Part shown: positions 2,543 through 63,662 of the stretch, piece after piece
Numbering within the stretch: the first letter of the stretch is position 1
Layout: each line of letters opens with the position of its first letter
Source of the DNA: Candidatus Sungiibacteriota bacterium
GTDB lineage: Bacteria > Patescibacteriota > Minisyncoccia > Sungbacterales > HO2-52-23
Direction: 5' to 3'
NCBI GenBank assembly: GCA_016180435.1
Contig: JACPBG010000001.1
Coordinates: 136,358-200,357, forward strand
Length of the DNA: 64,000 nucleotides
Notes under the pieces: model-generated
What the model was told of the DNA's origin: nothing
The model's input: the letters and a program-made list of their open reading frames with translations, nothing else
The model's database searches: none
Made by a program: the position numbers and the translations under genes

Positions 2543-2950
2543 TCGACCACCTTATTTTGATTTGCCTTATTATTTTAAATCACTATTTTAATAGTTATTT
2601 CGTGAATCTTTAGGTAGAAAATAAAAAATTATTAATAAACCACTTCACTATTGTAGCAACATTCGTCCGCCTTCGCTAAAGCTTCGGCAAGACATCGGCC
2701 TATCTTTATCTAAATAATCTCAACATTGTAACAGGCCTCGCAATAAACTATCTCCATCCTTTCCGGCGCGATTACAAAATCTTTTTTACAATTTTGGCAG
2801 TTTCGCGTTTCCATGTATTTTATCAATGGCCGCCATCGGCGGCTACATTATGCAAATCTCACTTTTTTCTTTTAAGGCGCTGAATGCTGTTTTGCGCGGT
2901 AACCGATATTTTTTGCAAAACTTTTAAGTGAGTCGGGGGAGGGACAATTT

Positions 2951-3085
2951 CGGATACAGTAATTTCAGACAATGGGAGGCAAAATTTGCTTGGTTCGTCC
3001 CGCTAAAGGCGGGACGAAAATTTTGCCGACCCTTAGCGAGGTTTTCGCAGGAAAAACCGAGACGTGTCTGAAATTACTGTATCCG
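2951..3085. repeat. Structured repeat family A, copy 1 (candidate ncRNA / REP-like element), 10 nt past the rpoB stop
   Basis: Outer 21-bp closing stem cggatacagtaatttcagaca / tgtctgaaattactgtatccg. Conserved unpaired cores AATGGGAGG and CGACCCTTAGCGA, two internal hairpins. Same architecture at 38201-38328 and 63457-63593, with compensatory stem changes. Confidence 0.65.
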
Positions 3086-3094
3086 AAAAATGTA

Positions 3095-6000
3095 TCACCG
3101 GGATACCACTTTCGCACGAGCGGCATACTGCCGACCCGGTTTTCGCTCCTCACCGGATTTCGGCGCCGGCACCTCTTTCTTTATCACGCTTACATCCAGC
3201 GCCAATCCTTTCAGCTCATTCACTAAAACATTGAACGACGCCGGAATATTCGGATTTTTAATTTTTTCGCCATTTATAATCGCCTCATACGTTGCCGAGC
3301 GCCCCAAAACATCATCCGACTTTATGGTCAATAATTCCTGCAGAGTATGGGCGGCTCCGTATCCTTCCAATGCCCAGACTTCCATTTCACCGAATCTCTG
3401 GCCTCCAAACTGCGCTTTTCCTCCCAAGGGCTGTTGAGTAATCAGGGAATATGGCCCGATGGATCGCATGTGAATTTTATCTTCCACCAAATGTATCAGC
3501 TTCATAATATATATATTGCCCACCGTGATTTTCCGGCCAAAACGCTCGCCGGTTCTTCCGTCATAAAGCGGAACTTTTCCGTCCTCGGGAAGCCCGGCTT
3601 TTTTAAGCTCGGCTTTTATCTCTTCTTCCGATGCGCCGGCCAGAGCCGGGGTCACGGCCCGATATCCCAATCTTTGAGCGGCCCAGCCAAGATGGGTCTC
3701 CAGAATTTGTCCGAGATTCATACGAGACGCGACTCCCAATGGATTTAAAATAACATCCACCGGAGTTCCATCTTCCAAATGCGGCATATCTTCCACCGGC
3801 AGAATTTTTGAAATAACACCCTTGTTGCCGTGCCGTCCGGCCAATTTATCGCCCACCGCAACTTTACGGAGCTGGGCAACTTCAACCTGCACGCGCTTGA
3901 TCACGCCGGCTTCCAGCTTGTCGCCGCGCTCGCGCGCAAATACTTTAATCCCGACTATCCGGCCCCGCTTGCCGTGCGGCAGACGCAATGACGTATCTTT
4001 GACATCGCGCGCTTTTTCCCCGAAAATCGCGCGCAATAATTTTTCTTCGGGTGTTAAATCGGATTCGCCTTTGGGCGAAATTTTTCCTACCAAAATATCG
4101 CCGGATCTTACCTCGGCCCCTATTCTTACAATCCCGTCCTCATCCAAATTTTTCAATTTTTCCTCTCCGACATTCGGAATATCATGAGTCGTGATTTCCG
4201 GACCAAGTTTAGTGTCGCGCACATCCACCGAAAAATCTTCAATATGCATCGAGGTAAACCGGTCATTTTCCAGCAGACGTTCCGAAAGAATTATGGCATC
4301 CTCATAATTCGCTCCGACCCAGGAAATAAACGCCACAAGCACATTCTGTCCAAGCGCCAATTCGCCGTCGCTAATAGAGGAACTATCGGCCAAAATATCG
4401 CCCTTCTTTACTTTATCTCCGCGATGCGCGACCGGGCGCTGTCTAATAACAGTAAAGGCATTGGTTCGCAAAAACGAAACCAGAGGATACACTTTCATTT
4501 TTCCGTTTTTATCTTTCACCCGAATTTCACGCGCGTCGGATGATTCCACAACTCCCGCATCTTCGGCGAGAATCACTCTCCCGGAATGGCGCGCCGCATC
4601 AACTTCAACTCCGGTCCCGACATATGGAGCATCGGCGCGGACACACGGCACCGATTGGCGCTGCATGTTTGAGCCCATCAACGCGCGGTTGGCATCATCA
4701 TGCTCAAGAAAAGGGATCAGGCTGGTTGCGATGCTAATTGCCTGCTGTGGAGATACATCCATATAATGAACGTCTTTTTTCTCGATAACTCCCGGGTTTC
4801 CATGTATGCGCGCCTCAATACGCCCAAGTGTGATATTTCCATCGTGATCAATATCAATGCCTGCGTGCGCGATATTAACTTTTGTCTCGAATGCCGCATC
4901 CAGATATTCAATCTCCCCGGTAATTTTGCCGTCCGTGACTTTCATATACGGAGTTAGTATAAGTCCGAGATCGCTTAAGCGCGCGTAACCGGACATATGC
5001 CCCACCAGTCCGATGTTTGGCCCTTCCGGCGTTTGAATCGGACAGATTCTTCCGTAGTGCGAAGGGTGCACATCGCGCACCTCGAATCCGGCGCGTTCTC
5101 TTTGCAGTCCCCCGGGTCCCATGGCCGAAAGACGGCGCTTGTGCTCAAGCTCGGACAACGGATTGATTTGATCCATAAATTGCGAAAGCTGGGATGAAGT
5201 GAAAAATTCCTTGACAGACGCCATAAAAGGACGCGCATTTACCAACTGAGCCGGAGTCAGTGTAACCGGATCAAATGTTGACATGCGATCCTTGACAATT
5301 CTTGCCATGCGCGCAACCCCGACCCGTAATTTATTCTGCAAAAGTTCGCCGACGCAACGCACCCGGCGATTTCCAAGATGATCAATGTCGTCTACCGCCG
5401 CGTCCGGCGCATTATTCAACCGGATTATTTCACGAAGAATCGCAGTAATTTCCTCGGCTCCAAGCACACGATCCTTGGGATCTTTTACGTTTTTTTTCAA
5501 ATCAAGGCGCTGATTCAATTTAAAACGCCCCACTTCTGCCAAGTCATATCGATCCTGTCCGAACATAGCGCGAATAAGAGAGCGCGCATTATCCACGGCC
5601 GCAAGATCCCCGGGACGTATGCGCCGGTATATTTCAATAAATGCGTCATCCGCATTTTTGGAAGAATCGCGCTCCAGGGTTTTTCGCATGTAAGATATCT
5701 CTCCGGTATCAAAATCCTTGAAAAGATTGAGTATGGCGTCATTATCAGCCACGCCAAAAATGCGAAGCAGGACCGAAGCCGGCACTTTTCGCTTGCGGTC
5801 GATTTTCACCTGAATTGCGCCGTCCGAATCTGTTTCAAATTCAAGCCAGGCCCCGCGATTCGGAATTACTTTAGCGCCGAATAGTTTTCTGCCTCGATTC
5901 AAATAAGCCGTGAAATAAACGCCGGAGGAACGTATAAGCTGGGAAACCACAACTCGCTCTACCCCGTTTACTATAAAGGTTCCGCGCGGAGTCATTAACG

Positions 6001-14377: not shown

Positions 14378-15478
14378 ATGGAAAGTCAACAAACATTATT
14401 AAGCGGAATACAACCCTCCGGGGATCTCCATATCGGAAATTATCTCGGGGCGATTAAACAATGGGTGGAACTGCAAAAAACCCACCGCGTTTTTATCACA
14501 ATCGTAGATTTGCATGCCATCACGGTACCGCAAGATCCGGAAAAACTTCGCGAAAAAACTTTAGAAACCGCGGCCTTACTTTTGGCCTGCGGCATTGATC
14601 CCAAAAAATCCGTGCTTTTTATACAATCCCATGTACCGGCGCACACCGAACTTATGTGGATTTTGAATACCCTAACACCTGTCAGAGAACTACTGGAAAT
14701 GACACAATATAAAGAAAAGGCACCCGGACTTAGAAAAATTGTAGCAAGAGGACGTGCGGGACTACTTTCACCGCATGGGGGTGGACTACTTTCACCCGCC
14801 AACATGGAATTAAAAGAAGATTTAGGAAATATGGGCCTTCTCGATTATCCGATATTGCAGGCCGCCGATATTTTACTTTATCAACCGGACATAGTGCCAA
14901 TTGGTGAAGATCAACTTCAACATCTGGAACTTACCCGGACCCTGGCGCGAAAATTCAATAATCGCTTCGGGGAGACATTCAAAGAGCCAAAAGCCCTTAT
15001 TAATGCAGGTACCGGACGCATCATGGGACTTGACGACCCGTCCAAAAAAATGTCCAAATCCGCCCAGAGTCCAAATAATTATATCGCTTTACTTGATTCG
15101 CAGGATGAAATCCGCCGTAAAATTAAAATCGCCGTAACTGATTCAGAAAAAGGAGGGACCGAATTCTACAAAAAGGCGCGACCGGGCGTGGTAAATCTTT
15201 TAGCGATTTATGCGGAATTTTCGGATTTGACTATGGCTGATACTCTGACTAAAAGTTGGGAAAACTATAGTAACAGATATAGTGAACTAAAACACGATGT
15301 AAGCGAAATTGTAATAGAAAAACTTTCCAAAATTCAAGAAAAATACAAGGAAATTTCTACAGACAAAGAGGGGCTTCTCACGATCCTCAATTCCGGCTCC
15401 CAAAAAGCCGCCGAAGTTGCCAATAAAACTCTTACCGAAGTGAAAAATAAAATTGGGCTTGTTCCGTTAGAGTTTTAA
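14378..15478 (+). CDS. trpS: Tryptophan--tRNA ligase
   Basis: Class I signatures: HIGNYLGAI and KMSKS. Contains an in-frame tandem duplication (GLLSPHGG/GLLSPANM) at about 14755-14800. Confidence 0.9.
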   Translation: MESQQTLLSGIQPSGDLHIGNYLGAIKQWVELQKTHRVFITIVDLHAITVPQDPEKLREKTLETAALLLACGIDPKKSVLFIQSHVPAHTELMWILNTLTPVRELLEMTQYKEKAPGLRKIVARGRAGLLSPHGGGLLSPANMELKEDLGNMGLLDYPILQAADILLYQPDIVPIGEDQLQHLELTRTLARKFNNRFGETFKEPKALINAGTGRIMGLDDPSKKMSKSAQSPNNYIALLDSQDEIRRKIKIAVTDSEKGGTEFYKKARPGVVNLLAIYAEFSDLTMADTLTKSWENYSNRYSELKHDVSEIVIEKLSKIQEKYKEISTDKEGLLTILNSGSQKAAEVANKTLTEVKNKIGLVPLEF

Positions 15479-16772: not shown

Positions 16773-16816
16773 AACAGTGACAGAGATAATATAGAGATTA
16801 CATTAAGGTCTATCAA

Positions 16817-16858
16817 TGTTTTTCATTAATTCGCGATCGCGAATTAATGAAAAACATA
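16817..16858. promoter_or_regulatory. Perfect 42-nt palindrome (family F, copy 1) about 45 nt upstream of mpg
   Basis: atgtttttcattaattcgcgatcgcgaattaatgaaaaacat; near-identical copy at 43659-43693. Confidence 0.5.
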
Positions 16859-16897
16859 TAAAAATATTAAATTTCAGATTAATCAGAGTCCGGCTTG

Positions 16898-18239: not shown

Positions 18240-18270
18240 AAAAAGGTGGGAAGGTGAAAGAACCTAGTGT

Positions 18271-18349
18271 CCTAGGCCACTAGACGATAGGGGCATAAAT
18301 CGCCAGAATTTTGGAAAAATCTGGACTAGACCGGACTAGACGACAGGAG
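18271..18349 (-). repeat. Repeat family G, copy 1: tRNA-Glu-like 5' fragment (acceptor plus D-arm) plus upstream region with further D-arm-like GTCTAGT words
   Basis: Minus strand: GCCCCTATCGTCTAGTGGCCTAGG..; about 85% identical to 34318-34395. Confidence 0.55.
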
Positions 18350-18468
18350 TATAAAAAATGGGTCGGTCGGAGCCGTAACGTGTTATATCTCATCATATAC
18401 CATCATCTTACAATGAATAATGATAAATGAGGAGTTATTTTGCAGGAGGTCTATATATTCACCGGACC

Positions 18469-18995: not shown

Positions 18996-19248
18996 GTTAT
19001 TAAATGCGTGGGTTTACCCCACACTTAATTTTAACTGCCGCTTTCGTTTCCATCCAAGGCAAGATGAACATCTGTTAAGAAATGCGGGCGTATCACACCA
19101 GCTTACTCTGGACGGCACGAAAACGGCCTGCCCGCCATATGCCCGTCTCACAAGTAAAGGCGTTACTCGAAACTTCACTGCAGTACTGAACCCCGTCTTA
19201 ACTTCATATACAGGCGTATGGCAGGCGGGTTAAAATTAAGTGTGGGGC

Positions 19249-21479: not shown

Positions 21480-22250
21480 TTATTTCAGCCAGCCGGTTAT
21501 CGTCTGAACAAGCTGATTAAGATAAATGTTTATTTTTATTTGAAATTCTCCTCCGCCCATCGCCAGCTGGTTTGTTATTGCGAGGTATAAGATAAAAATG
21601 CCCATCAAAAAGAAGGTTATGCCGGATATCACATCGGCTATCGCAAGATTAATTTGCCTCGCGCCGATTGAATAAGACAGGCGTTTATTTGATTCCATAA
21701 GTTTTTTAGTGAAGTTGTTTTTATCCAGGAGATGGGCAATCAGGAAAAGAGGGGCAACCATTCCTAAAACATAGGCAAGAGCATAAACCCCTCCCCAAAA
21801 AATGGAATTAGGCAAAACAGATAAAGCCACAACACCGGCCAAAACCGGAGCACAGCACATGGTCGCAAATCCCGAAAAAATACCGAGTGTAAAAACCGAG
21901 CCCGCACTATTGATTTTTAATTTCGGACTAACGGAAAACGGCATTGAAAAATGCTGCCCCAGCAGTATCAATGCCCCTAGAAATAAAAGGAATATTCCTC
22001 CGGCAATAAATATCGGATCGTGATATTCACTGAATAACTTCCCGAGGCCAGCCGCCCCCATACCCAGCGGCAGGAACACCGCGAGAAGTCCCAGGAAAAA
22101 TACAAAAGTCATCCAAAACACTTTTTGTTTTTCCCTGAAAATAGAACCCAAATATGAAGGCAGTAAAACAGTGATACAACAAGGCGCAAAGAGCGCCGCT
22201 ATTCCGGCGATAAACGCGGTTATAAGCGATGCGATAATTAATGTTTCCAT
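21480..22250 (-). CDS. DsbD_2/MerT-like membrane protein with two Cys-Cys-x-Pro TM motifs (internal duplication)
   Basis: FAPCCITVLLP and FATMCCAPVLAG. The track start at 22283 is non-ATG and lies inside a repeat, so the start is moved to the METLIIAS Met at 22250. Confidence 0.5.
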   Translation of the reverse strand: METLIIASLITAFIAGIAALFAPCCITVLLPSYLGSIFREKQKVFWMTFVFFLGLLAVFLPLGMGAAGLGKLFSEYHDPIFIAGGIFLLFLGALILLGQHFSMPFSVSPKLKINSAGSVFTLGIFSGFATMCCAPVLAGVVALSVLPNSIFWGGVYALAYVLGMVAPLFLIAHLLDKNNFTKKLMESNKRLSYSIGARQINLAIADVISGITFFLMGIFILYLAITNQLAMGGGEFQIKINIYLNQLVQTITGWLK

Positions 22251-22267
22251 GATTATTGAATCCTCTC

Positions 22268-22367
22268 TAGACCTACTGCACAAAGATTTTCGTCACGAAA
22301 TTTAAGAATTTCGAGGCAAAATCGCTGAACAAACTTTGCGGCCTATCGCTTAGATAAGCCAAAAAGC
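22268..22367. repeat. MITE-like family B, copy 1 (left arm plus centre); overlaps the 3' end of the thioredoxin-like gene and provides its stop codon
   Basis: tagacctactgcacaaagattttcgtcacgaaatttaagaatttcgaggcaaaatcgctgaacaaactttgcggcctatcgcttagataagccaaaaag is near-identical to the first 100 nt of 53158-53321. Confidence 0.7.
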
Positions 22368-22918
22368 GGGTCATCCAGCGTAAATCTGATTATCCCGTTT
22401 TTATCAATAATAAAATAGGTGTGGCCGGGAAAACCGCCCGGATGCATTGATGAATTTAAGTATAACACATCATACGCCCGAGACACGGAGCGCGCGGCGT
22501 CAAAAAGAATTTTGGATTTTGCCAGATTCGGCGATTTACTTACGATTTCCTGCCATTGACCCTTAGAATCGACAACAATGGAGAAAGCCGCTACATTTTC
22601 GGTATCAAATCTGGGATCATTACCAAACCCCGCTATCTGATCCCAACAAGCCGGATAACACATCGCCCCCTCATTAAAGAAAAGCACTACGTTTTTACCG
22701 AGATAATCGTTTAATTTAACTGTTTTCCCGTCAATACTTTCCAGCGCAAAGTCCGGAGCTTTTTTGCCCACCGCATCTTTAAAAACCAATTTTTCTTTAG
22801 AATTTACATCATTCGTGATGGCTAAATTTATATCGGGACGGTTTCCTCCCGCGGTGAAGATAAGAAATCCGCCGATAATAATTGCCGCTGCGCTTATAAT
22901 TATTGTTTTTTTACCCAT
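22343..22918 (-). CDS. Thioredoxin-fold thiol-disulfide oxidoreductase (TlpA/ResA/redoxin-like), N-terminal membrane anchor
   Basis: KAPDFALESIDGKTVKLNDYLGKNVVLFF..CYPAC (CxxC) layout typical of TlpA-like redoxins. The C-terminal FGLSKR* is encoded by repeat B. Confidence 0.65.
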   Translation of the reverse strand: MGKKTIIISAAAIIIGGFLIFTAGGNRPDINLAITNDVNSKEKLVFKDAVGKKAPDFALESIDGKTVKLNDYLGKNVVLFFNEGAMCYPACWDQIAGFGNDPRFDTENVAAFSIVVDSKGQWQEIVSKSPNLAKSKILFDAARSVSRAYDVLYLNSSMHPGGFPGHTYFIIDKNGIIRFTLDDPLFGLSKR

Positions 22919-22924
22919 AGTATT

Positions 22925-23033
22925 TAGAACTTACGCGTTTAAATGAAAAGACCCGCTTTTGTCATTCCCGTGAAAACGGGAATCCAGTATTTTAGGCATA
23001 TATCGGGAATGACATTAAACGTGTAAATCCTAA
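22925..23033. repeat. MITE-like family C, copy 1
   Basis: acttacgcgttt...gtcattcccg..cgggaatccagtattttaggc is shared in inverted orientation with 27691-27824. Confidence 0.65.
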
Positions 23034-23117
23034 TATTGAAGAAATTACAAGAATAAAAAATCTCCGCTCAAGGAGATTGAAAAGGCGCGCGACATAAAAC
23101 CAATTCGACAAACGGTT

Positions 23118-27644: not shown

Positions 27645-27690
27645 ATTTTTAACTATACCATAGCTTGATATAAATAAAAGCTTACTATTT

Positions 27691-27824
27691 TAGGACTTAC
27701 GCGTTTGATGTCATTCCCGACTTGATCGGGAATCCAGGAAACCCATATTTGCCTAAAATACTGGATTCCCGTTTTCACGGAAATGACAAAAATGGGTCTT
27801 CCCATTCAAACGCGTAAGTCCTAT
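27691..27824. repeat. MITE-like family C, copy 2 (full palindromic form)
   Basis: Terminal inverted repeats aggacttacgcgtttga / tcaaacgcgtaagtcct; inner inverted repeat gtcattcccg / cgggaatgaca. Confidence 0.65.
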
Positions 27825-27908
27825 ATTTAAAAGAATTACAACACTTGATTAAATGTGCCTAATATAGTAAGCTTATGCATATAATTTCCGGAACCGAAGG
27901 AAAGAAAA

Positions 27909-30333: not shown

Positions 30334-30364
30334 GATTATTCTTCCTAAATTTTAACTTGATAAT

Positions 30365-30512
30365 TCCGACCAGCTTGCTGGTCGGTTACCATTGATAGGT
30401 TCTCGACCCGCTTCGCTCTCGCTCCAGCGAGGCGAGCAGGCTCGAACAATATTTTTCGAGCGAAGTCGAGAAGATACCCTTGATGATACCGACCTGCTTG
30501 CAGGTCGGAGGT
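30365..30512. repeat. MITE-like family D, copy 1 (with about 30-nt internal insertion)
   Basis: Hairpin termini tccgaccagcttgctggtcgg / ccgacctgcttgcaggtcgg and core ttcgagc..gtcgagaa; inverted copy at 43914-44027. Confidence 0.65.
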
Positions 30513-30520
30513 TCATTTAT

Positions 30521-30634
30521 TAGACCTACTACGCAAAGATTAATCTACTGCAATTTAATAATTTCGGCCAAAATCGCTTCAAAACTTTTTGGCTTATCTA
30601 AGCGATAGGCCGCAAAGTTTGTTCAGCGATTTTG
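30521..30634. repeat. MITE-like family B, copy 2 (inverted; right arm plus centre), supplies the obg stop codon
   Basis: Reverse complement matches 53207-53321. Preceded by ttattag, like the full copy. Confidence 0.7.
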
Positions 30635-31697
30635 TTTTTTCTATCGCATCATAATCATAAATTGAAAAAGCGCCGACAAGCATCTTCTTCTTTTTCAGTA
30701 AAGAAAGTTTCTTTTTTAACTCTGACCGAGAAACCGTATCGCTCTTTCCCAAGAAAATAAATTCTTTTTTATCTAAAAGCGCTTTACTGTATATTCCAAG
30801 CTCTTTCCGGACGATTTTATAATCTTTATATGGATCGGCTGATTCCGCGGAAATAATATGAAATAAAACTTTTGTCCGCTCGATATGGCGCAAAAATTTT
30901 ATGCCCAGCCCCCTTCCGCCGGATGCCCCTTCTATTAACCCGGGAATATCTGCCAGCACAAGCTCATAATATACCCCCAGATTCGGCTCCAGAGTTGTAA
31001 ACAAAAAATTTCCGACCTTGCTTCGGGCGTTAGTAAATTCATTCAACAAACTTGATTTCCCGACGTTGGGCAATCCTATAAGCCCCACATCGGCAATAAG
31101 TTTTAATTCAAGCCGTACGGTAAAATTTTCTCCCGGCGCGCCGTATTCAAATTCTTTGGGCCGGGTATTTACGGAGGACCGAAAATGAAAATTTCCTCTA
31201 CCCCCGCGCCCGCCTCGGGCCGCCAGAAAACGCTCGCCAATGGATACGATTTCTCTATCATTTTTTACCCCGTTAGAACGCTGCCGACTCCTGCTCGCCT
31301 CGCTAAAGCTATGGCGAAGCGGGTCGGCGGTAACGGCAGAGATAGCCGATGGGGATATAATACTCTCATTGGCAGGTCGCGAAGCGTCCGTTCTAACGGG
31401 GTTTGCAGTAAGATTATGGATAATCGTTCCCACCGGCACATATAAAACAAGATCTTTCGCATTGGGTCCGTCGCGAAATTGACCCTTGCCGTCCCCGCCG
31501 TTTTTTGCGGAAAATTCCTTTTTGAAACGGTACGAGCTTAAAATGCTAAAATCCGACGATCCCTCAAAATAAATATCCCCGCCGTCACCCCCTGACCCGC
31601 CCACCGGGCCGTATTGATTCAAATTTTTGTTAAACAAAACAGCGCCCCGTCCGCCGCTTCCCGCACGTAGTTTTATTGTGATGTCGTCTATAAACAT
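30594..31697 (-). CDS. obg: GTPase Obg/CgtA
   Basis: N-terminal Obg fold MFIDDITIKLRAGSGGRGAVLF...GGDGGDGG and G-domain motifs GLPNVGKSSL, DIPGLIEGA. C-terminal ...KLCGLSLR* is encoded by repeat B. Confidence 0.9.
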   Translation of the reverse strand: MFIDDITIKLRAGSGGRGAVLFNKNLNQYGPVGGSGGDGGDIYFEGSSDFSILSSYRFKKEFSAKNGGDGKGQFRDGPNAKDLVLYVPVGTIIHNLTANPVRTDASRPANESIISPSAISAVTADPLRHSFSEASRSRQRSNGVKNDREIVSIGERFLAARGGRGGRGNFHFRSSVNTRPKEFEYGAPGENFTVRLELKLIADVGLIGLPNVGKSSLLNEFTNARSKVGNFLFTTLEPNLGVYYELVLADIPGLIEGASGGRGLGIKFLRHIERTKVLFHIISAESADPYKDYKIVRKELGIYSKALLDKKEFIFLGKSDTVSRSELKKKLSLLKKKKMLVGAFSIYDYDAIEKTKSLNKLCGLSLR

Positions 31698-34304: not shown

Positions 34305-34317
34305 TACACCAACTCCT

Positions 34318-34395
34318 CCTAGGCCACTAGACGACGGGGGCATAAATCGCCAGAATTTTGAAGAAATCGGGAATAGACCGAAATAGACGACAGGA
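34318..34395 (-). repeat. Repeat family G, copy 2 (tRNA-Glu-like 5' fragment plus upstream region)
   Basis: Minus strand: GCCCCCGTCGTCTAGTGGCCTAGGAGG; about 85% identical to 18271-18349. Confidence 0.55.
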
Positions 34396-34580
34396 ACACA
34401 AAATGTTTGATTTCTTATCTTACTACAATTCTTACTACGATATACTAAAAATAAAGCGCTTTCACAAGGAAACTTAATCACGGAATGGCTTTTTTTATTT
34501 GACAAAGCCAAAAAATAGATGTATTAAATCTGTATTAAGAGGGTTGGCTCTTTTAAAACCCAGTATGGAGGAGGCTCAAA

Positions 34581-38200: not shown

Positions 38201-38328
38201 GTATCACTATTTCAAAACAATGGGAGGACAAGTTTGCATGGTTCGCCGTCTGCAGACGGCGAAAACTTGTCCGACCCTTAGCGAGTTTTTGCGCTGGCAA
38301 AAACGAGCGTGTTTTGAAATAGTGATAC
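38201..38328. repeat. Structured repeat family A, copy 2, 7 nt past the ftsI stop
   Basis: Closing stem gtatcactatttcaaaaca / tgttttgaaatagtgatac covaries relative to copies 1 and 3. Cores AATGGGAGG and CGACCCTTAGCGA are conserved. Confidence 0.65.
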
Positions 38329-38334
38329 CGAACC

Positions 38335-43532: not shown

Positions 43533-43658
43533 AAGATCAAAACTATACCATGCATATCATGATCAAGTTTAAATTACAATATAGACCCTATCACGTCGCC
43601 ATCGAACTGGATTATATATTTTAGCAGGCCGAAAAAATTCTAAGTTAGATTTATTAAT

Positions 43659-43693
43659 GTTTTTCACTAATTCGCGATCGCGAATTAGTGAAA
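43659..43693. promoter_or_regulatory. Perfect palindrome (family F, copy 2) upstream of the saccharopine-DH-family gene
   Basis: tttttcactaattcgcgatcgcgaattagtgaaaa; same TTCGCGATCGCGAA core as 16817-16858. Confidence 0.5.
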
Positions 43694-43913
43694 ATTAATA
43701 AAAAATGGGTCCCCATGGGCAAGCCCCGTCACCAAAATTTTGACAGTTTCTGTGCCGCCCCGAATAAGCTGGCGGGATATACTCTGTATTTCTTGATATA
43801 TGTTCATCTCTCTTGGGATGGAAACGAAAGCGGCAGTCAAAATTTGGTGCGGGGCAAGCCCATGATCTTTTGGAGCATGGATAAAAATCCGCCTAAAGGC
43901 GACTACAATGAAG

Positions 43914-44027
43914 CTCCGACCTGCAAGCAGGTCGGTATCAAAGGTATCTTCTCGACTTAGCTCTAAGAATATTGTTCGAGCCTGTCGAGAACCTACCAAT
44001 GGTAACCGACCAGCAAGCTGGTCGGAA
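43914..44027. repeat. MITE-like family D, copy 2 (inverted)
   Basis: Reverse complement aligns with 30365-30512, minus its 30-nt insertion. Confidence 0.65.
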
Positions 44028-44049
44028 TTATCAAGTTAAAAAACCAATT

Positions 44050-45514: not shown

Positions 45515-45561
45515 AGTTTATACCATAACATATTTTACATAAAATTCTAATCTCTAATTTC

Positions 45562-45671
45562 GAGTTTGGTGAATAATGCATAAATAAATTATTTTTCGAG
45601 CAAGCCGCAACAGCGGCGCGTCGAGAAATTACCTTAATCCATAATGTACTTCTCGACAGGCTCGAAGAATA
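45562..45671. repeat. MITE-like family E, copy 1 (inverted, one terminus only)
   Basis: Matches the reverse complement of 60105-60247; shares the ttcgagcctgtcgagaa core with family D. Confidence 0.65.
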
Positions 45672-45718
45672 AAAGTTGCTTAAAATCTTAATTCTAAAAC
45701 ATAGATTCGACAAGATCG

Positions 45719-52555: not shown

Positions 52556-52680
52556 AAACTGCTTTTAAAAATCTTCGCAAAATTCCACCGTAATTTTGCT
52601 CATCACGGGTCGGCCTCGCTCTTTCCGTTTCACGGAAAACCGTGGCCGCTCGGCCTCCCAGTGTTTTTAAAAGCAGATTT
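52556..52680. repeat. Structured repeat family H, copy 2, immediately after the ALDH stop codon
   Basis: Same core as 2416-2542; closing inverted repeat ctgcttttaaaaa / tttttaaaagcag (differs from copy 1). Confidence 0.6.
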
Positions 52681-52801: not shown

Positions 52802-53128
52802 ATGAATGATATAGAATTTTTCTGTCCGCAGTGCTATAAAAAAGCCGAATTTGCGACGCACTATTGGATTAAATATTCTACGGCTGGATTGGAATTGCCT
52901 ACGTTTTTGTGCGTGGATTGTCACACAGCATATATTGATTGGCCCGTTGTCAAGCGTAAAATCCGCCGATGGAGAAATGCATCAAAATATGCGAAAGCAA
53001 AAATTTCTTATTTCGCGGTTGTCATAGAAATTATGCAGTGGCACCGTGAAAACCTGGAAGAGTTTTTTATAAAGCGACTTGGATATCGCGAAGTGAAATT
53101 TTTAAAGCGGCGTAAAGCCAAAACTTAA
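52802..53128 (+). CDS. Hypothetical zinc-ribbon protein (CPQC...CVDC)
   Basis: 108-aa ORF with two CxxC pairs. Confidence 0.4.
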   Translation: MNDIEFFCPQCYKKAEFATHYWIKYSTAGLELPTFLCVDCHTAYIDWPVVKRKIRRWRNASKYAKAKISYFAVVIEIMQWHRENLEEFFIKRLGYREVKFLKRRKAKT

Positions 53129-53156
53129 AACGCGGATTAATCGCGTTTATTTTTTA
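53127..53156 (+). terminator. Intrinsic terminator after the zinc-ribbon ORF
   Basis: aaaaCGCGGattaaTCGCGtttt then tttttt. Confidence 0.65.
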
Positions 53157-53157
53157 T

Positions 53158-53321
53158 TAGACCTACTGCACAAAGATTTTCGTCACGAAATTTCAGAATT
53201 TCGAGGCAAAATCGCTGAATAAACTTTGCGGCCTATCGGCCAAGATAAGCCAAAAAGTTTTGAAGCGATTTTGGCCGAAATTCTGAAATTGCAGTAGATT
53301 AATCTTTGCGCAGTAGGTCTA
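53158..53321. repeat. MITE-like family B, full-length palindromic copy (about 164 bp, 22-bp terminal inverted repeats)
   Basis: tagacctactgcacaaagatt ... aatctttgcgcagtaggtcta; the terminal cta provides the TAG stop of the minus-strand ORF 53319-53573. Confidence 0.7.
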
Positions 53322-53573
53322 TTCAACTCCTCCGACTTTTTCCACAATAGCGCGGTTAATTTCATCTTCAGTGGCGCCTTCGGGCAAACCGAGTTCTTTG
53401 ATCAATTCTTCGCGCTCCTTTCTTTCTTTTCGCTCTTGCAATTTTTCAAACGGCAAAACTTTGACTTTTTGTCCGGGCTTTTGCCCGGATTCCGGTAGCG
53501 GCTTTTCTTTCCGCTGGCGGTATTCATCAAGGTTCACGACGTTTTCGAAATTATTTTGAGGAGTTTTTTCCAT
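53319..53573 (-). CDS. Hypothetical small charged protein
   Basis: 84-aa Lys/Glu-rich ORF. Confidence 0.35.
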   Translation of the reverse strand: MEKTPQNNFENVVNLDEYRQRKEKPLPESGQKPGQKVKVLPFEKLQERKERKEREELIKELGLPEGATEDEINRAIVEKVGGVE

Positions 53574-54031: not shown

Positions 54032-54667
54032 TCAGAAACGTAAATTATTATTAATAAGTTTTGCAAAAGCAATTAATTGTTCACGAGTAAATTTTTCATC
54101 AGCCATTAAAGTTACGAAGAAGCGACCAGAGCTATCAGCAAACATCAAGGATCTCTCAAGATTTTTTTCTTTATCCATATAAAAGTAAAATCCTTTCTTA
54201 CCGACATCAATATTGTCTATGCTAGCGCCGCCCAATTTACCCAAAGCCTCATATGAATCGAGCATCTTAAACGCTGAGTCTGCATAAATTACGTTGGCGC
54301 TTATATTAATATTATTATTGTTTCCATATTGACAAAAAATAATTTTTTCAGTTTGAAACGCATCCATCATGGGGTCGGAAGCCAAATTTGTATTCACTAA
54401 AAATAGTTTGTTTACATCTTTTGCCGAAGCTATTTGTGAACAACTAAATTTAAAACTACTGGAACCAATTTTGTCATTCGACGGTACTTGAGTCGGCGAG
54501 GCAGAAGGCGTTGTTTTTTGTGTAAACCCTTGCGGGCCAGACGGCGTTGATCTGCTTATAGTGTTGATGGCTCTATTGTAAAAATAAAATGCGCCTCCTA
54601 TTACAATTACTGCTGCCGCAACGATCACTAGCAATGAAATATATCCGCGATTATTTGATGTTTTCAT
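54032..54667 (-). CDS. Hypothetical membrane-anchored extracellular protein
   Basis: 211 aa, N-terminal TM, Ser/Thr/Pro-rich linker; low GC. Confidence 0.4.
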   Translation of the reverse strand: MKTSNNRGYISLLVIVAAAVIVIGGAFYFYNRAINTISRSTPSGPQGFTQKTTPSASPTQVPSNDKIGSSSFKFSCSQIASAKDVNKLFLVNTNLASDPMMDAFQTEKIIFCQYGNNNNINISANVIYADSAFKMLDSYEALGKLGGASIDNIDVGKKGFYFYMDKEKNLERSLMFADSSGRFFVTLMADEKFTREQLIAFAKLINNNLRF

Positions 54668-56430
54668 TATTTTATATTTTCTTCTTGGCCAATATTAATA
54701 GTTGGCTCCACTGAGGCGTATTTTCGGATGAAATAAATATCATTCGCGTTTTGTATGGTATCTATGCCTCTGGTTTTATCATACCTGCCTCCGATATTGT
54801 AATTCAAAACTGATACGGGTGCGGTTTGATTTTTTCCAGTTCCGTCTCCAAGTTGTCCAGTTTCATTGCCGCCCCAACACTTCATTTCTCCATTCGATAA
54901 CAAAGCGCAGCTATAATTTACACCGGCCGCAATGGCAACAGCGTTAGTGATGGCAGAAGAAGAAATCTCGCCCCCTGCACTCCCGCCCCAACATTTTACT
55001 TGTCCGCTTGATAACAAGGCGCAAGTATGAAAAGATCCAACCACAACAGATGTAGCATTGGAAATGCTGCCGCCATTAAGCTGGCCGCCACCATTATCGC
55101 CCCAGCATTTAATTGTGCCACCAGTTAGCAAAGCGCAGGTATGGCTTTCGCCAGCACTTAAAGCAGATACGCCATTTAAACCAGAAACCACAACTGGCGT
55201 GGCTTCGTATTGAAGCTTTGTAGAAGCGCCTAACTGTCCGCTAGTATTCCAGCCCCAGCATTTTACGGTGGCGTTGGAAAGCAAAGCACACGTGTGGTTG
55301 CCGCGAGCTATCAGTGCTACTGCATCATCAATACCTATAACTGATATTGAGGTATTTTTAGAAACAGTTGTCCCATCGCCTAATTGACCATGACTATTTT
55401 CGCCCCAGCATTTTACAGAGCCGTTTGATAATAAAGTACAGGTGTGCTTCCAGCCAGCCGCTATTGCTATCGCATCATTTATTCCTGAAACCAAAACCGG
55501 AGAACTTTTACTTGTTCCGTAACCGTCTGTTCCTATACCTAACTGGCCATAGAGATTATACCCCCAACATTTCACGTTCCCACCGGAAAGCAATGCGCAT
55601 GTGTGTTTCCAGCCAGCGCTTACGGCCATCGCATTATTTATGCCTGACACAGCAACGGGCGTAGATTTATAATCATAAGACGCGCTTGAACCATATCCTA
55701 GCTGGCCCCAATCATTTTGGCCCCAGCATTTAACCCCACCACTCGAAAGTAAAGCGCAAGTATGTGCGCCGTTTGCAGAAATAATATTTTCCTTTTTCAA
55801 ACCAAACGCCAAAAAAGTATTTTGTCCGTTGCTTAGAAAAGATGCTGACGCGTTGCCGTAATATAAATAAATTTTGCCACTGGGCGCAGTGATAGACGGA
55901 ACTTTTACCCAAATTTTTGAATTCTCCGAGTTACATCCGGATTCCATCCAGTAATTAAGCAAAACAGTGCTGCCAAAATCAGTAAATCGCATATCGCCAC
56001 AATCTGAACGCATTTTGCCTGCAGATACAAGCGAGGCAGTATCTAAAGATATTAAAATCTGATAATTGGAAAGTGCTGTGGCAGAAGATATAGAAATTAA
56101 TTTTCTATATTGCCAATTTGGCAAAATTTTTACTGGTTCGGATTTAAGTACTGTCGGCGTTGGAGTTTGACTTGGTACTATGATTTTTGGTGTAGCAGGC
56201 CGCACAGTGGGCGTTTGAGTAGACTGGGTGAAAGGCGCTGTTACTTGCAGCTCCGTTTCCGAAGGCGCGGCCTGTTTATCTTTTGGCTCCGGAAAAGATA
56301 AAGGATTTGATGTAATCTTTTGTGAACCTGTCGGCACTGAAGAAGGATTAATGAAAATATTTAAATAAACATAAGCGCCCCCAAGTAAAACAGCGGCGAT
56401 AATTATAGAAATTATTACTAATTTAACCAT
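54667..56430 (-). CDS. RCC1-repeat (beta-propeller) surface protein with N-terminal TM anchor
   Basis: About eight repeats of the HTCALLS.G.VKCWG.N..GQLG pattern; PT-rich linker. Confidence 0.7.
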   Translation of the reverse strand: MVKLVIISIIIAAVLLGGAYVYLNIFINPSSVPTGSQKITSNPLSFPEPKDKQAAPSETELQVTAPFTQSTQTPTVRPATPKIIVPSQTPTPTVLKSEPVKILPNWQYRKLISISSATALSNYQILISLDTASLVSAGKMRSDCGDMRFTDFGSTVLLNYWMESGCNSENSKIWVKVPSITAPSGKIYLYYGNASASFLSNGQNTFLAFGLKKENIISANGAHTCALLSSGGVKCWGQNDWGQLGYGSSASYDYKSTPVAVSGINNAMAVSAGWKHTCALLSGGNVKCWGYNLYGQLGIGTDGYGTSKSSPVLVSGINDAIAIAAGWKHTCTLLSNGSVKCWGENSHGQLGDGTTVSKNTSISVIGIDDAVALIARGNHTCALLSNATVKCWGWNTSGQLGASTKLQYEATPVVVSGLNGVSALSAGESHTCALLTGGTIKCWGDNGGGQLNGGSISNATSVVVGSFHTCALLSSGQVKCWGGSAGGEISSSAITNAVAIAAGVNYSCALLSNGEMKCWGGNETGQLGDGTGKNQTAPVSVLNYNIGGRYDKTRGIDTIQNANDIYFIRKYASVEPTINIGQEENIK

Positions 56431-60104: not shown

Positions 60105-60247
60105 AGTTTGGTGAATAATAAGATTAAGCCAATTTTATTCTTCGAGCCTGTCGAGAAGTACATTATGGATTAAGGTAATTTCTCGACGCGCCACTGTCAC
60201 GGCTTGCTCAAAAAATAACCTATTTTATGCATTATTCACCAAACTCA
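60105..60247. repeat. MITE-like family E, full-length palindromic copy
   Basis: Terminal inverted repeats gagtttggtgaataat / attattcaccaaactc around ttcgagcctgtcgagaagtacattatggattaaggtaatttctcgac. Confidence 0.65.
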
Positions 60248-60325
60248 AAGTAACAAATTTGCATAAATATATGCGTTGTGTAAAATTAAATTGTCGCAAC
60301 ATTATAAAAGATATCATTAAAATCT

Positions 60326-63296: not shown

Positions 63297-63456
63297 TTAC
63301 TATATATTTAAATCCCCACCACGTGGGGATTTAAATATATTCATACTTAACTTTTCTTCTTAAGGCGCATGCCGTGTATGAACTTACTATCAAGATAATT
63401 CGGTCGAGGCAATATGATTTTGAAACAAAAGCCCCCAGTGAGTTATTGCGGCTTCG

Positions 63457-63593
63457 TATATTGTAATTTCAGACAATGGGAGGACGCGAAAGCTTGGTCC
63501 GAGCACTCAAAAATTTTGAGTGCTCGGTTTCGCGTCCGACCCTTAGCGAATCCCGCGCTGGACGGGACGAGTCGTGTCTGAAATTACAATATA
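63457..63593. repeat. Structured repeat family A, copy 3, 70 nt past the groEL stop
   Basis: tatattgtaatttcagaca ... tgtctgaaattacaatata closing stem. Conserved AATGGGAGG and CGACCCTTAGCGA cores. Internal hairpins differ from the other copies with compensation. Confidence 0.65.
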
Positions 63594-63662
63594 CGAGAGC
63601 CGCGTAAGCGAGTAAACGTGTTTCAAAATCATGTTGCCGAGTAAACCGAATTATCAAGTCCA

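Follow-up and report, generated by a model that had tools for sequence, protein, structure and literature searches.

A foldback MITE-like element and its decayed copies at the 3' ends of genes in a Sungbacteria genome

The genomes of CPR bacteria are tiny and densely packed with genes, and mobile DNA is usually said to be scarce in them. The 64-kb stretch of a Sungbacteria genome analyzed here (the window) contains three copies of a foldback element, family B, one of them complete and two truncated, and each copy contains the stop codon of an adjoining gene. We consider it likely that family B is a non-autonomous, TA-duplicating foldback MITE and that the tails it has given to proteins are by-products of its decay, at positions shaped by selection. 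The analysis follows up an original prediction, in which the repeat was said to write the C-termini and stop codons of three genes including obg. For one of the genes the comparison with relatives points to an insertion that left the protein as it was, and for the other two to an additional loss of DNA on the side of the gene.

A foldback element in three copies

The terminal 21-mer of the element, TAGACCTACTRCRCAAAGATT, occurs four times in the window (22268+, 30521+, 53158+ and 53301-) versus no occurrence in 100 shuffles, and the core 18-mer AAACTTTGCGGCCTATCG occurs three times where 0.1 is expected. The copies and the genes that they adjoin are collected in Table 1. The full copy is a near-perfect palindrome that folds as a single hairpin, with a folding energy of -85 kcal/mol as RNA (z = -13.6) and of -51 kcal/mol as DNA (z = -11.9). 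Its terminal inverted repeats (TIRs) were at first thought to be 22 bp long; they are 21 nt with 20 of the 21 positions matching, and pairing runs on along the whole element. The 21-nt termini, for which the motif can be written TAGACCTACTGCGCAAAGAT, are not self-complementary. No ORF of transposase size was found inside the element, the longest being a 60-aa ORF that starts outside it and a 23-aa ORF, and a search of the element against Rfam 15 gave nothing at the gathering threshold (the best hits were plant miRNA-precursor hairpins with 29 bits versus the 211 required). A T-tract 3' of the hairpin is absent. The description as a palindromic MITE-like element is borne out by the TIRs, the TA duplication, the many copies, the non-coding sequence and a relative with an empty site (see below).

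Table 1 Positions of the family-B copies, of the genes and sites that they adjoin, and of further dispersed repeats in the window.
Feature	Position	Strand	Remarks
Family-B full-length foldback MITE	53158..53321	+	164 bp, duplicated TA at each end included
Left TIR of full copy	53158..53178	+	TAGACCTACTGCACAAAGATT; first two bases are one TA of the target duplication
Right TIR of full copy	53301..53321	-	TAGACCTACTGCGCAAAGATT on the minus strand; TAG at 53319-53321 is the orf84 stop
Truncated copy 2	22268..22367	+	Element positions 1-100; right arm gone
Truncated copy 3	30521..30634	-	Element positions 50-164, inverted; left arm gone
orf84, conserved 84-aa hypothetical protein	53319..53573	-	Native TAA changed to TAG by insertion
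Bidirectional terminator-like hairpin	53128..53148	.	Between orf108 and orf84; MITE wedged between hairpin and orf84 stop
AhpC/TSA-redoxin (TlpA-like)	22343..22918	-	Pfam; last 7 codons and stop (LFGLSKR-stop) are element
Native redoxin 3' remnant, untranslated	22253..22267	-	GAGAGGATTCAATAA, E-R-I-Q-stop; beyond element, 2 nt before ccdA ATG
ccdA (DsbD_TM), downstream operon partner of redoxin	21480..22250	-	Pfam
obg (GTPase ObgE)	30594..31697	-	Pfam; last 12 codons and stop ((T)KSLNKLCGLSLR-stop) are element
Further repeat	2949-3086 / 38208-38331 / 63453-63596
Further repeat	18270-18356 / 34317-34403
Further repeat	2426-2532 / 52564-52671
Further repeat	45544-45694 / 60113-60264
Further repeat	22922-23036 / 27687-27826
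Further repeat	19009-19083 / 43788-43862
Further repeat	16806-16865 / 43647-43706

Identity with the full copy is 98% over 81 nt for copy 2 and 94% over 84 nt for copy 3, while the 50 nt common to copies 2 and 3 are 100% identical; folding of the truncated copies gives only -29 and -34 kcal/mol. The three copies stand at the coordinates first assigned to them, and all three stop codons, each on the minus strand (orf84 53319-53321, redoxin 22343-22345, Obg 30594-30596), lie physically within the element. Two details of the prediction had to be modified. The sequence ttattag does precede the full copy, but its second instance is at copy 3 and not at copy 2, where ctctc is found. The element is indeed read on opposite strands in the tails of Obg and the redoxin, but the two peptides hardly differ (GLSLR-stop in Obg and GLSKR-stop in the redoxin), the hairpin tip GGCCTATCGCTTAGATAAGCC being nearly palindromic. 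That copies 2 and 3 might be the halves of a single element split by an inversion, as their 50-nt inverted identity (22317-22366 / 30585-30634) could be taken to mean, was rejected because re-inversion would abut two truncated convergent genes.

Insertion into the stop codon of orf84

Homologues of orf84 without the element are 84 aa long and end in E (four out of four), and the relatives L111, L110 and L107 have GAA TAA at the insertion point. In the relatives the DNA reads ...GTT GAA TAA, followed by an A-rich spacer and the terminator hairpin, which is kept in relatives without the MITE, and in the window it reads ...GTT GAA TA[GACC...GGTC]TA ATAAAAAATAAACGCG.... Aligned as empty and filled sites, the relatives have GAA-TA-A... 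and the window has GAA-TA[element]TA-ATAAAAAA, and the single TA in L111 and L110 versus the TA...TA around the window element is a target duplication by this empty-site comparison. The element has thus entered the TA of the native TAA stop and duplicated that TA. A TAG stop was regenerated at orf84 because the first base of the element after TA is G, and the encoded protein is, as judged from the orthologues, unchanged by the insertion. The TAG stop was rightly placed within the element, but the C-terminus is not altered, orthologues without the element having the same length and the same last residue. Four such element-free orthologues were found, and it was this observation that had been named beforehand as speaking against a change of the protein.

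Logan contig L048 (SRR12113385) is 99.9% identical to window positions 56573-53273. At 3256-3350, inside the right arm, it turns to a 93-nt short variant of family B, and the other terminal TAG of this variant is the stop of an rplO-like ORF (...PALEKLK-stop). L048 is probably a chimeric join through the repeat, and it reveals a fourth family-B copy in the same population. No population-level empty sites were seen in Logan, where every contig with orf84 or ccdA either holds the element or breaks within it. As a separate observation, a gene for an rve-family integrase (268 aa, PF00665) adjoins the orf84 homologue in this part of the relatives L107/L108 (300-1106); the window locus lacks it.

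The redoxin-ccdA junction

All 17 redoxin homologues examined (200-220 aa) end in ...FTLDDP-NMALANDKLIKEIEKLK, with several nearly invariant tail residues. The window protein ends ...FTLDDP-LFGLSKR-stop; the native tail NMALANDKLIKEIEKLK is lost and the conserved 17-aa C-terminal helix is replaced by 7 aa. In an alignment with 2ywn, a Bcp-type peroxiredoxin of solved structure, the lost segment falls on the C-terminal helix region.

How this came about can be read from L053, an element-free relative with 84% protein identity, in which the region is GACCCG AATATGGCTTTGGCCAACGATAAGTTGTTTAAGGAAA TA GAGAAGATTCAATAA TC ATG, the ATG being that of ccdA. The window has GACCCG [element positions 100 to 1] TA GAGAGGATTCAATAA TC ATG, and the remnant at 22253-22267 aligns base for base with GAGAAGATTCAATAA TC ATG of L053. 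Copy 2 has in this way preserved half of an empty site (native GAAA-TA-GAGAAG versus the element end followed by TA-GAGAGG). Since the native last four codons and the stop survive past the element, the insertion was at the TA of ATA, four codons before the stop, and a full-length insertion at this place would have yielded the redoxin tail ...KEI-DLLRKD-stop. The comparison shows a later deletion of about 101 nt (37 native and 64 element bases), which took the right arm together with 13 redoxin codons. The original prediction was right in that the redoxin C-terminus differs from those of the orthologues and that the stop lies in the element, but insertion alone did not produce this tail, as the secondary deletion recognized with L053 is needed as well.

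In L053 the redoxin stop is only 2 nt before the ccdA ATG. In the window the distance from the new redoxin stop to the ccdA ATG is 92 nt, of which the element accounts for 75 nt, the remnant for 15 nt and the native spacer for 2 nt. The junction between the L arm and ccdA is reproduced in five Logan contigs, assembled from five or more sequencing runs. We also looked for microhomology at the junctions. At the redoxin the element sequence CTTTTTGGC resembles native GCTTTGGCC seven nt away, and at obg there are only A-runs; we find neither of them persuasive.

The obg junction

A ...KILNxLxKxK tail is present in 19 of 19 Obg homologues (320-334 aa) and is replaced in the window. The closest homologue (77% overall identity in BLASTP and 87% in the aligned columns) ends ...YDYEAIEK-IKKILNKFMKEKHV-stop and the window protein ...YDYDAIEK-TKSLNKLCGLSLR-stop, the last approximately 14 aa, with the native tail IKKILNKFMKEKHV, being swapped for 13. 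Starting at the C of ACA, 50 nt of the obg DNA match copy 2 without a difference, which identifies the new tail as element sequence.

The obg DNA was also compared by alignment with that of the relatives L050 and L051. In the relatives an alpha/beta-hydrolase gene overlaps obg or follows it within 10 nt, and in the window a second repeat (30350-30517) and typA stand 3' of obg in place of the hydrolase gene. No remnant of the obg 3' end is left past the element, and therefore a deletion or rearrangement joined obg codon ~354 to element position 50. Here too the C-terminus differs from that of the orthologues and the stop is in the element, but not by insertion alone, the copy being truncated on the gene side. 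As this is true of both copies with altered tails, the notion that insertion as such writes the tails had to be given up.

The element-coded Obg tail (window 30594-30644) has LNKL where native tails have LNKF or LNKL, and the codons, CTG AAC AAA CTT versus TTA AAT AAA TTC, differ mostly at synonymous sites. The match may be due to chance, to a resemblance in sequence that directed the join, or to selection acting on this essential protein. The apparent retention of LNKL is something that a purely random deletion does not predict; this and the different downstream gene of the relatives, which obscures the order of events at obg, count against the explanation that we favor.

The support from independent assemblies concerns the L-arm/ccdA junction and not the gene-side junctions, the Obg and redoxin protein sequences being found on one contig only in the collection searched. 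This single occurrence would fit an origin of the truncated copies and fused gene ends as metagenome-assembly artefacts caused by repeats, as would the fact that short-read assemblies break at repeats: the Logan contigs with the L-arm/ccdA junction stop 30 nt into the L arm, and L048 switches to another copy inside the right arm. We nevertheless find an artefact hardly credible, because the junctions are at non-repeated intragenic positions, with no shared k-mer for mis-joining, and because the redoxin-ccdA synteny is intact on either side of copy 2, down to the 15-nt remnant. Both ORFs are moreover still open, and analogous fusions are found in unrelated assemblies.

A proposed course of events

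We propose that family B is a 160-190-bp foldback element with conserved ends of approximately 37 nt, which would insert at TA in AT-rich DNA and duplicate the TA. It may be mobilized in trans by a transposase of the Tc1/mariner/IS630 type, the TA duplication being the one feature that points to it. Both ends read TAG inward, so that an element entering a TAA or TAG stop at its TA restores a stop codon and leaves the protein as it was. Genes abut or overlap in the host genome, and tolerated insertions would consequently be those at or just inside gene 3' ends. At redoxin-ccdA the element would have landed four codons before the redoxin stop, and in the redoxin and obg alike a subsequent deletion reaching into the element would have taken one arm and the adjoining native codons. 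Illegitimate recombination provoked by the hairpin is a plausible cause of such deletions. Each shortened gene would then read into the leftover element up to the first in-frame stop, and losing an arm of a -85 kcal/mol hairpin within an operon may even be favored. The mechanism of deletion, the type of transposase and the tolerance or selection of the truncations are the parts of this scheme that we infer.

Where the reading ends depends on the frame. One frame meets the TAG immediately and the other two stop 4-20 codons into the element, and there are stops in all three frames close to both ends of family B. Partial copies are common. The element-coded tails are by-products of decay and not a function of the element.

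Family B in other genomes

When one genome per GTDB species was scanned with the terminus GACCTACTRCRCAAAGAT, 47 loci were returned. By our own arithmetic about 69 chance matches are expected for an 18-mer in 596 Gb, and lone matches in Proteobacteria, Firmicutes and similar groups were therefore discarded; we retained only those loci that whole-element BLAST or paired TIRs confirmed. A Sungiibacteriota MAG from Californian groundwater has 12 loci with an exact terminus match, including five full copies at 84-87% identity. The other hosts are a member of the Jorgensenbacteria, two MAGs of the "Parcubacteria group", a Sungbacteria MAG and two MAGs labelled Saccharibacteria, together with bins labelled Pacearchaeota and Nanoarchaeia (DPANN), and a scan of JGI metagenomes added further copies. 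Two viral matches in IMG/VR, with 3 mismatches over a 20-mer, were counted as chance, and similarity to annotated IS elements of plasmids and phages did not exceed chance (E >= 0.1).

There are 38 TIR pairs in other assemblies, about 30 of them distinct, and TA...TA bounds 35 of the 38. The sizes are 42, 75, 111, 127, 160-165, 178-205 and 357 bp. All copies from other genomes share the conserved terminus, and the ends of approximately 37 nt are 78-100% identical across these copies and 78-97% between subfamilies. The interiors of different subfamilies are only 32-62% identical, that is, essentially unrelated, and all still form hairpins; in four subfamilies compensatory changes keep the pairing at 16 of 51 consensus pairs.

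In L002 (labelled Pacearchaeota), L039 (labelled Nanoarchaeia) and L030/L045 (labelled Saccharibacteria) the copies of one subfamily share 89-96% identity over their entire length. This near-identity across archaeal and bacterial bins would mean either that the element was recently transferred horizontally or that contigs are mis-binned or mislabelled; the NCBIfam matches on the "archaeal" contigs (a dimeric GlyRS, an IleS fragment and a CcrM-like methylase) are non-diagnostic for taxonomy. A more far-reaching reading takes family B to be a "stop-codon-safe" foldback transposon that spreads actively and horizontally, in shared groundwater, across DPANN archaea and distant CPR classes (Paceibacteria-type Sung- and Jorgensenbacteria, and Saccharibacteria), with TA+G termini and three-frame stops as adaptations to near-zero intergenic DNA and with a hairpin that is required for transposition. 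We mention this as a speculation, and rather doubt that it is correct.

Gene ends and element-coded tails

The position relative to genes could be assessed for 56 ends of full copies in other genomes, counting as inward ORFs those of at least 100 codons within 60 nt. Twenty ends lie at most 60 nt past the stop of an inward ORF, two of these directly after TAA, six ends (five distinct) contain the stop of an ORF, and 30 are without such an inward ORF. Element-coded tails were found in other genomes as well: Tgt of a Jorgensenbacteria MAG ends ...ENK-LDLLRKDFRHEISKS-stop, a 480-aa protein ...NS-LDLLRKDFRNEIS-stop and a hydrolase ...KRN-RPTA-stop.

It had been suggested that the element targets gene ends, in which case its transposase would recognize stop-codon or termination contexts and the donation of tails would belong to the biology of the element. 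The many copies that lie 3-20 nt past a stop codon, the two directly after TAA and the several that contain an ORF stop would agree with targeting, as would the TAG read inward from the termini, which makes insertion into a stop codon silent, and the stops in all three frames near each end. However, more than half of the assessable ends (30/56) have no inward ORF, some copies abut gene starts (flanks such as cat followed by TA), and TA in AT-rich DNA is where stop codons and terminators are located anyway. Selection would in addition purge interior insertions from a genome that is ~90% coding, and the two changed tails in the window required further deletions. A preference for TA in AT-rich DNA combined with purifying selection, where there is almost no intergenic DNA, gives the same picture of gene ends. 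Targeting is thus unneeded, with only six ends containing an ORF stop, and we give it little credence.

The hairpin and the search for a partner

The extreme stability of the hairpin, its maintenance in four subfamilies with unrelated interiors by 16 compensatory pairs and the typical location of copies in 3' UTR positions could suggest that the repeat is a selected RNA or DNA signal (a terminator, an RNase III site, an sRNA or a protein-binding hairpin) instead of a selfish transposon. A signal of this kind would not explain the TA duplication and the empty sites, the copies within coding sequence, the decayed half copies or the range of lengths from 42 to 357 bp, and there is neither a T-tract after the hairpin nor an Rfam family at threshold; homogenization of the DNA from arm to arm would yield the same covariation. 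We regard a selected signal as quite improbable for the family, although individual copies may possibly have been exapted secondarily.

An inverted doublet forming one long hairpin is also the architecture of REPINs, and the termini contain GTAG/CTAC motifs, with GCAGTAG present twice in the right arm. However, family B being a REPIN-like REP doublet moved by a RAYT (IS200/IS605-type) enzyme is very improbable. Insertion of REP/REPIN leaves no target duplication, whereas the target TA is duplicated in family B, the 21-nt termini are not themselves palindromes, and no RAYT or Y1 transposase was found among the scanned ORFs of the 64-kb window.

For the TA-duplicating MITE that we favor, an autonomous partner was sought in several places. 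Thirty-six of the largest ORFs in the window were scanned and include no transposase, and a partner was found neither beside single-end copies nor, in about 100 fetched loci, as TIR pairs with a spacing above 420 bp. The TIR scans of GTDB genomes, JGI metagenomes and IMG/VR returned short copies only. A TIR-like site 1.2 kb from the copy in L002/L075 was considered as the second end of an autonomous element and dismissed, as it flanks a Ca/Na antiporter gene and not a transposase.

Comparison with known repeat families

The kind of event described here is already documented; family B itself is new, and a full-text literature search found no paper describing MITEs in CPR/Patescibacteria. The Correia elements (CREE/NEMIS) of Neisseria are foldback MITEs of 100-155 bp that duplicate TA and lie close to gene ends. 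When transcribed together with neighboring genes they form long hairpins, which can be substrates of RNase III. An IHF site and promoter elements are part of their sequence, they are confined to Neisseria, and an autonomous partner is not known for them. Family B resembles them in foldback shape and TA duplication but differs in terminal sequence. The core of the characteristic 26-nt Correia TIR (TATAGTGGATTAA...) has no match in or near the copies, and a single match with 2 mismatches at 15278 is at chance level in the window. General features of the Correia elements have been published (PMC2229807).

Stop-codon-donating MITEs had been called rarely documented, which is an overstatement, as the QMITEs of Coxiella and the RPEs of Rickettsia already provide MITE-derived C-termini and fusions. 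QMITE1 and QMITE2 are, like family B, small non-coding MITEs with a stable stem-loop that overlap gene 3' ends (by 1-50 bp, among them those of ubiB, pntAA, mutT, nagZ, ruvB and recN) and undergo secondary indels, and in Coxiella burnetii Dugway a QMITE supplies the C-terminal 33 residues of EnhC after an indel (PMC5896051). They differ in sequence and in belonging to an unrelated host lineage, QMITE2 has variable direct repeats and not a fixed TA, and no distribution across phyla is reported for them, unlike for family B. The Rickettsia RPEs are palindromic repeats of ~150 bp in a reduced genome that join protein-coding genes, as family B does, and make in-frame fusions with them (PMC10969869); RPEs, however, insert in frame in ORFs and are translated through, whereas family-B copies mostly lie after or at stops and here terminate ORFs. 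MITEs derived from Tc1/mariner/IS630 (relatives of ISY100, and the eukaryotic Stowaway type) are mobilized in trans by a DDE/D transposase (PMC2170065, PMC2831304) and share the TA duplication and short TIRs with family B. An IS630-like element with family-B termini was not found, and derivation from this superfamily is suggested by the TA duplication alone.

Implications

The main appeal of family B lies in its breadth across candidate phyla and in its effect on essential genes in minimal genomes. Its activity has sufficed to reshape the ends of housekeeping genes: the essential GTPase Obg has a changed tail, and the redoxin has lost a conserved helix and has been uncoupled from ccdA. Annotated C-termini in these MAGs are unreliable, because element-coded tails (...LDLLRKDFRxEIS-stop, ...RPTA-stop) recur on unrelated proteins, and family B breaks short-read assemblies. 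As its termini are nearly the same in several candidate phyla, family B could possibly serve as a marker of gene flow among episymbionts.

Other repeats in the window

The MITE-like repeat load of this CPR stretch is unusually high. A repeat termed family A has two inverted copies at 30350-30517 and 43907-44041 with 92-97% identity. The first of these lies between obg and typA, separated by 3 nt from the right end of copy 3 of family B, and holds a nested insert of ~30 nt (30404-30440); a Logan contig with typA ends inside the family-A repeat. At least seven further families of dispersed repeats, 60-150 nt long and 64-97% identical, are present in the 64-kb window (Table 1).

On the minus strand obg itself has an in-frame insert of 44 codons at 31272-31403 (NPVRTDASRP...SRQRSNGV), which is absent from 19 of the 19 closest homologues, is bounded by inverted repeats of 12-14 nt (CCCGTTAGAACG / CGTTCTAACGGG) and shares a 37-nt motif with 30404-30440. 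The insert resembles a Rickettsia RPE and looks like a candidate third MITE family, translated within the essential GTPase. Finally, seven tandem repeats of ~114-159 nt at 54851-55764 lie in the gene of a 587-aa RCC1-repeat/DUF2341 protein (54667-56430, minus strand); these are ordinary protein-repeat periodicity and not a mobile element.
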